From positions 1,318,375 through 1,382,374 of the forward strand of contig JAMLJH010000002.1 of NCBI GenBank assembly GCA_023953615.1: 64,000 nt of DNA, written 5' to 3'. Below, piece after piece: positions 57,550 through 60,197 of the stretch; within the stretch, counting starts at the first letter, position 1, and each line of letters begins with the position of its first letter. The translations under genes were made by a program, and so were the position numbers. The notes under the pieces were generated by a model that did not search any database, had not been told where the DNA came from, and worked only from the letters and a program-made list of their open reading frames with translations. The stretch comes from Verrucomicrobiia bacterium (GTDB taxonomy: Bacteria > Verrucomicrobiota > Verrucomicrobiia > Limisphaerales > JADLHS01).

Positions 57550-58376
57550 TAAAATCCCGAGAAATGTCTTCGCCATTCGACTTTAAGTGCATCTGTACTT
57601 GGAAATGCTTGTGTGAAAACAAATGAGGGTAACGGCTTACTGAAACCAGGCACTGGATTAGTTGGCCTCGGAAAGGTTATCGGGTGAGTGGGGAAGAAAG
57701 AAAGCATCAAGCCAGACACGTAGCTATTCGAGTTGAACTGATCCCAACCAATGCCTGTGTATGTTTGATTAGGAAACAGCTCATATTCGAGGGTGGTATT
57801 TAGAAAATTACCGTTCATTGTACTATTTCGGACTGAAACCATGTCCAAAAAAACCAACGCTTGGGCTGCCGAGGAAAATGTCATGACCAAGGATGGATCA
57901 CCAAGTGGCAATAGCACATCTCTTATACGATTGAACCCAGCTACCATTTCGTCCTTATCAAACGGATAATCAGGACCAGCTCCGATGGCTATTCCATACA
58001 TTTGGCATGGACCAATAAAACTATCTGGAGCCAAAGAAGTTTTGCTAAATGCACGCTTAAATTCATACTTCCTTGTTTTCACCAAGTCGACATCGTCGGC
58101 CAGCAACCAAAGCTTGGAGTGGTATGCGTGGATGCCCCAGTCGTCCATCACCATATGATTTCCATACCAGAGCTCTATAAAAAGGCCTAAATAGTCAAAT
58201 TCCCCAATACTCCGGTTCCACGAAAACTGATAAAGATTGCCTCCTCCATGTTCCTGAATCGGATCCCTACTTAACCATCTGCCCGTGCTGGGATTGTAAA
58301 AGGCTTCGGCAGAATGTGTGGCGAATAAAAAAAGCCCTGCTGACAATGCCGTTATCAAAGTCCGTTTGCTTTTCAT
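57549..58376 (-). CDS. Signal peptide + Rhs-core tail + unassigned toxin domain (shell-less Rhs-tail toxin)
   Basis: MKSKRTLITALSAGLFLFATHSAEA | FYNPSTGRWLSRDPIQEHGGGNLYQFSWNRSIGEFDYLGL | about 210 aa of unrecognised sequence. There are no YD repeats. GAGGTG lies 5 nt upstream of the ATG. Confidence 0.7.
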   Translation of the reverse strand: MKSKRTLITALSAGLFLFATHSAEAFYNPSTGRWLSRDPIQEHGGGNLYQFSWNRSIGEFDYLGLFIELWYGNHMVMDDWGIHAYHSKLWLLADDVDLVKTRKYEFKRAFSKTSLAPDSFIGPCQMYGIAIGAGPDYPFDKDEMVAGFNRIRDVLLPLGDPSLVMTFSSAAQALVFLDMVSVRNSTMNGNFLNTTLEYELFPNQTYTGIGWDQFNSNSYVSGLMLSFFPTHPITFPRPTNPVPGFSKPLPSFVFTQAFPSTDALKVEWRRHFSGF

Positions 58377-58395
58377 ATTTCACCTCGTGTAATTA
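58273..58395 (-). repeat. Conserved 5' handle, copy A (RBS + signal peptide + start of Rhs tail)
   Basis: 123 bp with only 4 mismatches (counted by eye) against 60075..60197. Flanking sequence diverges on both sides. Confidence 0.9.
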
Positions 58396-58451
58396 ACTGA
58401 CGTAACGCAGTTTGGCGTCACTGCGCATGTCCAAGTCAAGATTTGTAGATT

Positions 58452-58670
58452 TCAAAAACATACTTGGAAGGATACAAGTTTGTGTCGTATGGACTTGGGA
58501 GGAGGACCGTAGAGCCGGAATGTTCCTCTAGTTTGAAGATCTGATGGCAGGACAGATGTGCCAAATTTTGTGCCGTCGATTCTAGCCCACCATCGAAGTT
58601 TTTGAAGTCGAACCAAGGACTCCTCATTAACGTCCAGCAGTGCTTTGACTTCGATTAAATCCATGCCCAT
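58452..58670 (-). CDS. Possible small ORF (72 aa) between toxin modules
   Basis: MGMDLIEVKALLDVNEESLVRLQKLRWWARIDG... . No recognisable family or RBS. It may be an orphan immunity remnant or non-coding. Confidence 0.2.
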   Translation of the reverse strand: MGMDLIEVKALLDVNEESLVRLQKLRWWARIDGTKFGTSVLPSDLQTRGTFRLYGPPPKSIRHKLVSFQVCF

Positions 58671-58850
58671 CGGCCCAGTTTCGCCGAAAAAAAGAGCGTG
58701 CTTCCGGCCACTGGTCGCCCCTGCTCTGCATCGGTCAACTTTACAACACGCTCCACTTTTGAAGATTGGCATCCAGTTACGATAAGCAAAACCAGCATCA
58801 AGGATTTCTCAGCCCAAAACATCGTATCGTAATCATAAGCATAAATCTTC

Positions 58851-59309
58851 TCAAGACTTCAACAGTTTGATTCGCCATTTGTCGTTTCCCAAGTAGGTAA
58901 ACCGAATTTTTCCGCGAGTCATTCGCGATGGAATGCCTAAGTCGTCTCGTTTCAATTCGACGCTGTGCATAATTCCCTGCTTTGGAGCAATTTCCCCCGG
59001 ATTGAATGTGAACGGCTCTTTCAGTTTTTCTTTCCATATAATTGTCAGTTGGTTCTTAATGCGGACAGCATCTAAAAAAGTAGATGTCGCACGCTTTAGA
59101 GAGTCCTCAGATTGGGTCGGTACTAATCGTCCACAGGATGCTTCTTCGGGAAGGCCAACAACTTGAACAACCCAAATCTCATTTGTGCTTAGGTTAAACC
59201 ACTCAAAGCTGACCTCGCTTGGGAATACACCTGACCTCGTCACGCAACCTACGCCTGAAACAGCCAGAGCCAGAATAAGGATTAGATTCTTCACAAGATT
59301 TTTCCTCAA
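58851..59309 (-). CDS. Putative immunity protein (exported/lipoprotein-like, ~152 aa)
   Basis: The TTG at 59309-59307 overlaps the toxin stop (TTGA); an alternative GTG lies a few codons downstream. LRKNLVKNLILILALAVSGVGC is a signal peptide ending in Cys. Confidence 0.5.
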   Translation of the reverse strand: MRKNLVKNLILILALAVSGVGCVTRSGVFPSEVSFEWFNLSTNEIWVVQVVGLPEEASCGRLVPTQSEDSLKRATSTFLDAVRIKNQLTIIWKEKLKEPFTFNPGEIAPKQGIMHSVELKRDDLGIPSRMTRGKIRFTYLGNDKWRIKLLKS

Positions 59310-60178
59310 AAGCCAACGCCTGCGGCAACAGCTCGCTCCACAATCCACTCGTATGCCTTGCTTGTTTGAAGCGTCCACGACATGCCGATGTCTGAATGGC
59401 TGGTTGGCGATCCTTCATACAACCAATCGGTGCGATAGAATTCCCGGGCGTTCTCACCGGTAAAGTGCCACGTCGGGGATACAATCGGTTGGTCATGCCA
59501 TGTCTTTACCGCGTGGTCGAGGTGCGCAACATTCGCAGGCTTGGATGTTCCCCACCACCGGTCAAACGGCATCTTTGCGACTGCATCAAAAATCCCCACC
59601 CAGTTCACGGGAACTGGCTTGTCTCTCGTTCCGCAACAGTCACAACCCAAATCGTTGAGCATCTTGGCGACACCAGCCGCAATGATTGCGCCTCTGCTCC
59701 AGCCCGTAAGATTGATTTTGAAGTCGTCTCCATTTTCCTTCGCCTGACAGTAATCTTTACAAATTCGTTTATGCACCGTCAGAGCGATAGAATAGGAATC
59801 CAAACCGGTCGCGCCAAAGCGCGGCCCTCGCCAGTACTCACGAGGCCATTCCGATGTCCTCAAATACAATATCCACGGATTTGCTCCGCGTCGTGGCGTT
59901 GACCATGTCCCGTCAATCGCATAAAAGGCAAGGCCCAGATCATCCACGTGGCTGAGAGGATTGTTTCCGGCAAACTCATAGATGTTCGGCCCGCCCAGTA
60001 GTTCCGATATGCCGCCCCCTTCTTCATCGGTCATCGGATCGCGACCGCAAACATCCCCGATGGGATCACGGCTCAACCATCTGCCCGTGCTGGGATTGTA
60101 AAAGGCTTCGGTGGAATGTGTGGCGAATAAAAGAAGCCCTGCTGACAATGTCGTTATCAAAGTCCGTTTGCTTTTCAT
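59306..60178 (-). CDS. Signal peptide + Rhs-core tail + DUF2235 / Tle1-like alpha/beta-hydrolase (phospholipase) toxin
   Basis: MKSKRTLITTLSAGLLLFATHSTEA | FYNPSTGRWLSRDPI...NIYEFAGNNPLSHVDDLGL | AFYAIDGTW..., INLTGWSRGAIIAAG (GxSxG) and WVGIFDAVAKM. These three motifs match the DGT(W/G)N, GFSRGA and FDTV motifs of DUF2235/Tle1 lipases. Confidence 0.75.
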   Translation of the reverse strand: MKSKRTLITTLSAGLLLFATHSTEAFYNPSTGRWLSRDPIGDVCGRDPMTDEEGGGISELLGGPNIYEFAGNNPLSHVDDLGLAFYAIDGTWSTPRRGANPWILYLRTSEWPREYWRGPRFGATGLDSYSIALTVHKRICKDYCQAKENGDDFKINLTGWSRGAIIAAGVAKMLNDLGCDCCGTRDKPVPVNWVGIFDAVAKMPFDRWWGTSKPANVAHLDHAVKTWHDQPIVSPTWHFTGENAREFYRTDWLYEGSPTSHSDIGMSWTLQTSKAYEWIVERAVAAGVGF

Positions 60179-60197
60179 ATTTCACCTCGTGTAATTA
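60075..60197 (-). repeat. Conserved 5' handle, copy B
   Basis: See copy A (58273..58395). Confidence 0.9.

Follow-up and report, generated by a model that had tools for sequence, protein, structure and literature searches.

Rhs-tail genes with apparent signal peptides and a shared 123-bp 5' block in a Verrucomicrobiia bacterium

Toxins of the Rhs type are thought to be cocoon-dependent: a cocoon of YD repeats encloses the toxin, and a C-terminal aspartyl protease sits in its plug. WapA-type proteins retain this YD shell whole, and effectors of the Tle1/DUF2235 phospholipase type have periplasmic immunity lipoproteins (termed ‘Tli’). The analysis described here concerns two adjacent genes, A and B, in a stretch of 64,000 nucleotides (‘the window’) from a Verrucomicrobiia bacterium (assembly GCA_023953615.1, contig JAMLJH010000002.1, positions 1,318,375 to 1,382,374 of the forward strand). 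Both genes open with nearly the same 123 bp of DNA (‘the handle’), and both encode the end of an Rhs core with no shell in front of it.

The closest described relatives are the classical ‘orphan’ rhs-CT/rhsI modules of Salmonella and E. coli, which have core DNA in common with the main rhs gene and are activated by recombination with it (PMC3967940, PMC3150448); in Salmonella the recombination site is a 522-bp stretch of 95% identity (PMC3967940, PMC3150448). Rhs-CT toxins of Salmonella can also be translated internally and act as toxin-antitoxin modules (PMC7043789). The protease itself has been characterized in P. protegens RhsA, where D1324 and D1346 form the catalytic dyad and mutation abolishes C-terminal autoproteolysis (PMC8765631), the C-terminal cleavage of Rhs proteins coming after a PxxxxDPxG(W/L/F) motif (PMC8765631). 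Against this background, genes A and B are probably ‘capped’ Rhs cassettes, with an apparent signal peptide where the shell would be, and the near-identity of their handles probably results from recent recombination with its 3' endpoint at the junction where Rhs toxins are exchanged. Judged by their sequences, they are no isolated curiosity, but members of a large family of capped orphan Rhs C-terminal cassettes that belong to Rhs loci.

The handle and the genes behind it

The two copies of the handle, the genes that they open and the ORFs (open reading frames) around them are the following.

57154..57576, minus strand: putative immunity gene for A, encoding a 140-aa protein with an N-terminal membrane anchor
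57549..58376, minus strand: gene A (M9920_16085, hypothetical protein), 275 aa, with predicted signal peptide, canonical Rhs tail (D38 ... D61-YLGL65) and a predicted toxin domain of ~210 aa
58273..58395, minus strand: handle copy A, with its ATG at 58376 and 4 of 123 positions different from copy B
58452..58822, minus strand: frameshifted small lipoprotein ORFs (58655-58822 and 58452-58772; LIVTGC lipobox) that separate cassette B from handle A and are probably what is left of an immunity gene
58851..59294, minus strand: putative immunity gene for B, encoding a 147-aa lipoprotein (…LALAVSGVGC…) with the motif FEWFNLSTNEIWV; called as a gene in L001
59306..60178, minus strand: gene B (M9920_16095, hypothetical protein), 290 aa, with predicted signal peptide, Rhs tail and a Tle1-like (DUF2235) lipase domain
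60075..60197, minus strand: handle copy B, comprising a 19-nt leader with GAGGTG, the ATG at 60178, the signal-peptide codons and the first 10 codons of the Rhs tail

When aligned with MAFFT and counted directly, the two copies (58273-58395 and 60075-60197, both on the minus strand) proved to differ, without gaps, at 4 of 123 positions; three of the differences change an amino acid (A10T, F16L, A23T) and one is synonymous. The copies are direct repeats with a spacing of 1,802 bp, and a repeat finder returned them as the sole repeat pair of such kind in the window, lengthening the pair to 161 nt at 88% identity (58235-58395 and 60037-60197). A 64-nt piece of the block has exactly two matches at no more than 3 mismatches, where 0.00 were expected from 100 shuffles. 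In Logan assemblies of two sequencing runs, copy B is present with both of its flanks, as are 30 nt from the start of copy A, all at 100% identity. One Logan contig that ends exactly at the two copies was considered as a structural variant and rejected, since the end reflects a break of the k-mer graph at the repeat. An exact-protein look-up gave no match for gene A and only two short Logan contigs for gene B.

The edges of the block are sharp in the DNA. Just upstream, 6 of 25 positions match, and the DNA beyond -19 is unrelated between the copies; at the 3' end, 16 of the next 38 positions differ, although the proteins stay homologous beyond this edge for the whole remainder of the tail (SRDPI ... 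N.Y.F..N....D.LGL). Codons 1-34 hold one synonymous and three non-synonymous differences, whereas codons 35-40 encode an identical peptide (LSRDPI) in A and B with five of the six codons synonymously different. This jump at codon 35 (Fisher p = 7.5e-4, at the nucleotide level) is a step in synonymous divergence that falls inside a conserved peptide, which points to the endpoint of a recombination or gene-conversion event and rules out plain duplication followed by divergence.

Read along the genes, the block is TAATTACACGAGGTGAAAT and then ATG: 19 nt of leader come before 104 coding nt, which run from codon 1 to the second base of codon 35. The start region has the form GAGGTG-N4-ATG, then MKSKRTLIT…HSAEA and F, and the protein start common to A and B is MKSKRTLIT(A/T)LSAGL(F/L)LFATHS(A/T)EA followed by FYNPSTGRWL. 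With its basic n-region, its hydrophobic core and A-x-A at -3/-1, the 25-residue N-terminus of both proteins looks like a Sec-type signal peptide. The Rhs tail stands directly behind it (FYNPSTGRWLSRDPI … N.Y.F..N….D.LGL), and the block covers the first 10 residues of FYNPSTGRWLSRDPI.

The TIGR03696 model (Rhs-associated core, 76 positions) identifies this tail at 33.0 bits in A and 33.4 bits in B, against a cut-off of 32.5, over positions 37-76 only; the RHS_repeat and YD-repeat models have no match in A or B, where only 25 residues precede the tail. In structural terms the tail aligns with the extreme C-terminal end of the solved cocoons (RhsA 7q97, TccC2/3, YenC2, Tse5, Tse15 and teneurin), and D38 and D61 of gene A align, after correction for a construct offset, to D1324 and D1346 of P. 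protegens RhsA. The two aspartates stand about 22-23 residues apart in the Rhs core; their spacing in gene B is longer through an insertion of 18 residues (D38 ... D79-DLGL). The end of the motif is DYLGL in A and DDLGL in B, and the Pro of PxxxxDPxG(L/W/F) is replaced. On the strength of these alignments, A and B keep the Rhs aspartyl-autoprotease tail without any shell.

A preliminary description of this DNA, made from the letters alone, had counted the same four differences by eye, had read the block as an expression-and-export module (Shine-Dalgarno sequence, signal peptide and first residues of the Rhs tail) and had placed it in front of otherwise divergent toxins. All of this is borne out, the toxin parts of A and B after D.LGL being unrelated (21% identity in a forced global alignment). 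Its statement that the sequence diverges sharply on both sides holds for the upstream DNA and for the toxin DNA but not for the protein, which remains homologous through the rest of the Rhs tail; uniform identity through the toxin domains, the outcome that it had named as contrary to its reading, was not found, as there is no alignable toxin DNA.

The toxin parts differ in how far they can be assigned. That of gene B matches PF09994 with an E value of 5.3e-6 and 26.4 bits over 46 residues, just under the cut-off of 27; a precomputed Pfam entry gives the same family for a protein identical to gene B, and GWSRG, a nucleophile motif of the GxSxG type, is present. The toxin of gene A belongs to a family of 12 sequences that conserve ~210 residues, many of them invariant, and the AF2 model of gene A (pTM 0.66) found no Foldseek match in the PDB. 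Pfam gave no match for gene A, for a third toxin ORF of the window (60889..61566) or for the putative immunity proteins, and PADLOC gave no defence-system match for any of seven proteins. The membrane-protein or lipoprotein gene that follows each toxin is likely its immunity gene: the motif FEWFNLSTNEIWV of the lipoprotein behind gene B also occurs in the proteins after Tle1-like toxins of two other genomes (L004, L014), as expected of a cognate immunity gene. The DNA next to cassette A on its downstream side encodes a transglutaminase-like/TPR protein (56062-57060, minus strand), and a similar protein (…DIARMNLLCAEGLPGAEKLNV…) is encoded downstream of the capped array in L107/L034.

A family of capped cassettes and its exchange junction

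Residues 1-66 of gene A, used in an exhaustive HMMER search against 1.84 billion cluster representatives, gave 12,770 matches at E <= 0.001; among the 150 best, all but one (149) are short proteins (66-385 aa) that are matched at their own N-terminus. The predicted arrangement of signal peptide, Rhs tail and variable toxin is common, being found in at least 149 protein clusters. In the parsed set from this search the tail begins at about residue 26, residues -3 to -1 are AQA, ASA or ALA, an Asp-Asp spacing of 23 is seen in 86 of 105 proteins, and 73 C-terminal domains fall into 59 unrelated clusters.

The exact peptide FYNPSTGRWLSRDP was sought by degenerate-DNA scans in JGI metagenomes and GTDB genomes; after de-duplication these returned 92 non-redundant genes of the signal-peptide type as opposed to 18 of the Rhs-core type (…YYGYR followed by FYNP…), a ratio of about 5:1. 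The two types are alike in the length from the F to the stop codon (median 219 aa in the former, 221 aa in the latter), and a second Asp/GL motif that was no part of the selection is kept in 73% and 59% of them, respectively. The ATG, a Shine-Dalgarno-like sequence and the A-x-A site are conserved in more than 90 non-redundant genes, invariably with F at +1. The named records with FYNPSTGRWLSRDP are metagenome-assembled genomes (MAGs) of Verrucomicrobiota, several bins being labelled Bifidobacterium-type or unspecific. Public annotation calls the capped proteins ‘RHS repeat-associated core domain-containing protein’ or hypothetical, and literature searches, with most subscription journals outside their coverage, found no account of signal-peptide-capped, shell-less Rhs C-terminal genes; the capped Rhs-tail cassettes of Verrucomicrobiota are apparently a large, undescribed family.

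With the toxin parts of A and B as queries, homologues were found behind signal-peptide handles, behind Rhs core fragments and behind two other points of signal-peptide fusion. One of them (P0173) is 82% identical to toxin B and stands behind an Rhs core fragment with no signal peptide; in others (P0161, P0175, P0166) the signal peptide is joined directly to GRWLSRDPI (without FYNPST) or to KYQDDESD…YYGYR…. These fusion points indicate that Rhs tails have been capped by predicted signal peptides repeatedly and independently, and several independent fusions argue for selection on the export of a unit made of tail plus toxin.

With the window's Rhs pieces as tblastn queries, capped genes of L005, L008, L010/L004, L014 and L020 were located downstream from an Rhs gene that shares their strand; this Rhs gene belongs to one family, of which the window holds a fragment:

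53270..54597, plus strand: core fragment of an Rhs gene whose family, in other genomes, stands upstream of signal-peptide-capped arrays; it breaks off inside its tail, after …TGTWLNRDPQ

At least six capped genes are present in L010/L004. Arrays downstream of Rhs genes occupy the place of the classical orphan rhs-CT modules, and most of the proteins encoded downstream of capped genes have a signal, lipobox or membrane N-terminus.

Within all the tandem arrays examined, neighbouring genes are 70-97% identical in DNA only from about -75 to +45 around the F codon and ~25% identical elsewhere, with one exception that involves a longer upstream duplication. Signal-peptide DNA is more alike within genomes than between them (median 0.66 versus 0.58, maximum 0.96 versus 0.78), as is the DNA of the motif (0.87 versus 0.78), the pairs being non-independent in both comparisons; the toxins are equally unrelated within and between genomes. 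Three pairs of loci (L010/L018, L014/L041 and L060/L090) have upstream DNA that is 90-100% identical and a matching handle, followed by unrelated toxins, and their identity collapses 30-120 nt past the point at which the F codon starts. Two Rhs-core-type paralogues of one genome (L011/L019) break at the same point as the capped genes, and on the CAYSDO contig a 38-nt exact run is common to the main Rhs gene's tail and to the handles of its array. These comparisons show the tail-coding DNA as the constant/variable junction of shell-bearing and capped genes alike, homogenised within loci.

The preliminary description had taken the handle for a recombination substrate that allows cassettes to be exchanged behind a single module, in analogy to orphan-CT switching but at the 5' end of a minimal gene, and had proposed that relatives be searched for different toxins behind the same handle. 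Such relatives exist, in the three pairs of loci just named. The synonymous jump from 1 of 34 to 5 of 6 codons and the related loci speak for a substrate of recombination, which in this strain is a probable one; the notion of one module serving exchangeable cassettes has to be given up, as every cassette has its own copy. The breakpoint is the ordinary constant/variable junction of Rhs genes, as in L011/L019, and lies near the 5' end of A and B because the shell is missing. The reading as a recombination-prone 5' module was thus essentially right, as far as sequence can tell, and incomplete on context.

Alternative readings and the Rhs remnants of the window

In the explanation favoured here, A and B would be adjacent toxin/immunity cassettes of the Rhs type that have lost the whole YD-repeat shell and have in its place a Sec signal peptide fused directly to the final ~40 residues of the Rhs core. 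The 123-bp block would be the constant 5' module of the family, supplying the ribosome-binding site, the start codon, the signal peptide and the opening third of the tail; its copies would have become nearly identical either by gene conversion between paralogous handles or by duplication of a handle-bearing gene in which all sequence 3' of codon 35 was later replaced. Lying in the tail-coding DNA, the 3' endpoint would then be the place at which Rhs toxins of this clade, whether shell-bearing or capped, are exchanged. Each cassette is predicted to be translated separately and exported by Sec; signal peptidase I would cut after A-x-A (between AEA and F), the mature protein would begin with the F of FYNP, and the downstream membrane protein or lipoprotein would shield the periplasm of the producer. 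Candidate roles for a tail that has no shell are self-cleavage at D.LGL, a sorting tag, or compatibility with shell-type genes.

A more tentative extension of this explanation, itself on the doubtful side, is that the ~40-residue tail is an autonomous module that works without a cocoon, and that Verrucomicrobiota have a hitherto unrecognised Sec-dependent class of polymorphic toxins, which shares the cassette pool of the cocoon-type Rhs proteins through recombination at the 45-nt junction that encodes FYNPSTGRWLSRDPI. The catalytic aspartates and the cleavage motif are conserved in the capped genes no less well than in the shell-type genes, and an autonomous tail could be a self-cleaving pro-peptide or a periplasmic tag for sorting or hand-over. 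If the tail is active or recognised alone, the processing and delivery of Rhs proteins would have to be understood differently, and a very small experimental handle on Rhs autoproteolysis would become available; if it is kept for compatibility only, it would be a natural 45-nt ‘adapter’ that lets toxin/immunity cassettes shuttle between two formats of delivery. Either way, dozens of uncharacterised toxin domains are added, that of gene A included.

Several observations weigh against the favoured explanation or some part of it. Export, signal-peptide cleavage, toxicity and immunity of A and B are all predictions. The tail of gene A (residues 11-64) has an AlphaFold pLDDT below 50, so that an autonomous fold is unsupported, and scans for promoters and terminators gave candidate sites no more often than chance would. 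The nearest Rhs core fragment of the window (53270-54597) lies on the strand opposite to A and B, and its tail DNA is unlike the handles. A handle identity of 95% or more occurs only in the window pair and in a pair from L008, most array neighbours being 60-85% alike, which implies that homogenisation is occasional and not continuous. A pattern specific to the handle of this lineage had 0 matches in JGI metagenomes, and no recombinant or alternative cassette was found behind the exact handle of the window, the source genome not being among the GTDB representatives matched. The only strain-level loss of a cassette that could be resolved did not use the handles. It separates L034 from L107 and L115 (the same locus in different JGI samples), which are 99.5% identical apart from a deletion of 1,052 bp (L034 2407-2410 versus L107 1465-2518, and likewise L115) that removed a capped toxin and most of its immunity gene. 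This indel was considered as handle-mediated loss and rejected: its junction is a 3-nt TGG microhomology inside the signal-peptide codons, where a signal-peptide stub remains, and not a handle-to-handle crossover.

That deletion speaks for a different view, in which the similarity of the handles is a passive by-product of occasional gene conversion, or of purifying selection on a good signal peptide, while the cassettes move without any part played by the handle, by illegitimate recombination or with larger mobile DNA. The internal IS21 fragment and the broken Rhs tails of the window show that illegitimate rearrangement is frequent there, and the 60-85% identity of most array handles would suit this view too. 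Illegitimate events should not be so repetitive, however, as to let three inter-genome pairs and one Rhs-type paralogue pair all end their homology ~30-120 nt into the tail motif, and they leave aside the 38-nt exact run between a main Rhs tail and the handles of its array; a passive origin is considered unlikely.

Less probable still is that the capped cassettes are mostly silent stores, serving for immunity or as a reservoir for shell-type Rhs genes, with an incidental start codon and signal peptide and little or no export. Their position downstream of Rhs genes is that of classical orphan modules, the tail is common to capped and Rhs-type genes, degenerate copies exist (L020_6564, L020_4842 and the stub in L034), and promoter signals do not rise above chance. 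The conservation of start codon, Shine-Dalgarno-like sequence and A-x-A site with F always at +1, the existence of at least three independent signal-peptide fusion points and the roughly fivefold excess of capped over Rhs-type genes for the FYNPSTGRWLSRDP tail argue instead for selection on export.

There is very little to recommend the idea that the block is conserved as an RNA element (a leader or a translational-control hairpin), or that it is an artefact of MAG assembly. Copy A does fold better than its shuffles (z = -2.26), with a hairpin over the Shine-Dalgarno sequence, but copy B does not (z = +0.33), its substitutions weakening the helix with no compensation; Rfam has no match over 56-63 kb, the leaders are not conserved between genomes (utr20 mean 0.33), and an artefact is improbable in view of the two independent assemblies that agree with the region throughout (100% identity). 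That one gene was simply duplicated in tandem, recently, and that the 3' parts diverged later, as the direct repeats 1,802 bp apart might suggest, is refuted by the alignment and retains next to no probability: a Tle1-like toxin and one with no known fold are unrelated, the upstream DNA is unrelated, and, with the protein motif still conserved, a few codons suffice for DNA identity to fall from 97% to background.

Around the pair of capped cassettes the window holds further Rhs material, as well as the IS21 fragment already mentioned.

39256-44511, plus strand: full-length main Rhs gene, 1751 aa, matching YD/RHS_repeat models
44540-46057, plus strand: ankyrin-repeat ORF, within the classical Rhs locus 39256-46890
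46064-~46890, plus strand: classical orphan core fragment, 67% identical to residues 1155-1427 of the main Rhs protein; no signal peptide
54598..55200, plus strand: piece from the inside of an IS21-family element, made up of the istA 3' end and the istB 5' half (no IS end), abutting the broken Rhs tail
60246..60314, minus strand: remnant of an Rhs repeat (NRLAGS…GSNVAVFNY), a short way upstream of handle B; inverted, it has 77% identity with 53403-53470 over 69 nt
60319..60885, minus strand: putative immunity gene of the third toxin, encoding a 188-aa lipoprotein
60889..61566, minus strand: third toxin ORF, with only the second half of the Rhs tail (…YLFAGNNLVECFDYLGMW) and no handle

The third toxin ORF overlaps, out of frame, the 3' end of a truncated beta-helix/Ig gene (61530-62744, minus strand). 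Its half-tail (~61555) and the broken tail at 54597 are complementary, about 9 residues being absent between them, and it is plausible that an inversion or other rearrangement parted the Rhs gene from its cassette array. A simple inversion linking 54597 to ~61555 was set aside and is at most a lead: what adjoins the broken tail at 54598 is the inside of an IS21 element and not an IS end, and the history must be more complex. A YD…NRLT relic similar to the one upstream of handle B precedes a handle in L014.

A lipoprotein-like ORF (…MAFIGACGLLVLCSCGNDG…; 52740-53205, plus strand) lies between the Rhs fragments 49743-52328 and 53270-54597, the counterparts of which are contiguous in the related genome L019; it may be an inserted gene of the immunity type or a sign of further Rhs fragmentation. 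Near the other end of the window a 161-nt tandem repeat of 3.4 copies and 93% identity occupies 9477-10023 (related copies extend over 9373-10110) and adjoins a tRNA gene at 10213-10296; each unit matches the Rfam RT-17 motif below threshold, at 20-25 bits compared with a gathering score of 40.4.

Comparison with known systems

The capped cassettes are most readily compared with the classical orphan rhs-CT modules. Like these, they consist of toxin and immunity genes that keep a conserved piece of the Rhs core and, in the relatives, are arrayed downstream of an Rhs gene, and the common core DNA would again be where recombination joins a new toxin to a constant 5' part. They differ in that each has a Shine-Dalgarno sequence, an ATG and an apparent Sec signal peptide of its own, with only ~40 core residues, and in that the common DNA amounts to only 123 bp, of which 94 bp (19 of leader and 75 of signal-peptide codons) are not Rhs sequence. 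The feature that defines an orphan, the lack of its own translation start and export signal, is not one that capped cassettes share, if their predicted starts and signal peptides are taken at face value; the classical orphan fragment of the window (46064-~46890), which has no signal peptide, makes the contrast with A and B within one window.

The internally translated Rhs-CT toxins of Salmonella (PMC7043789) offer a second parallel, being made without the shell and from start sites of their own. Those toxins, however, are cytoplasmic, have no signal peptide and are translated from a weak CTG within the rhs frame, whereas A and B have a dedicated, predicted one, and their putative immunity proteins are of the membrane or periplasmic kind. 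For gene B alone there is a likeness to the Tle1/Tli pairs, in its weak PF09994 match, the GWSRG motif and the lipoprotein gene next to it; its score remains below the Pfam cut-off (26.4 versus 27), and its N-terminal delivery part is a different one.

WapA (PMC12704120) resembles the capped proteins as an example of Rhs-family C-terminal toxins that are exported through a signal peptide and not by the T6SS (type VI secretion system), the difference being that A and B have no YD shell. In overall layout the MafB proteins of Neisseria (PMC4287609; Zhang et al. 2012, PMC3482391) come close, with a signal peptide, a constant N-terminal part, a hypervariable C-terminal toxin, a downstream immunity gene and multi-copy loci. 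MafB, however, has a globular MAFB-N/DUF1020 domain, and Pfam finds no match to MafB, MAFB-N or DUF1020 in A or B, whose constant part, 40 residues long, comes from the autoprotease tail of Rhs proteins and is also present in the shell-type Rhs genes of these organisms. With export itself predicted, genes A and B fit the Sec-dependent (‘T2SS class’, for type II secretion system) polymorphic toxins in the sense of Zhang et al. 2012.

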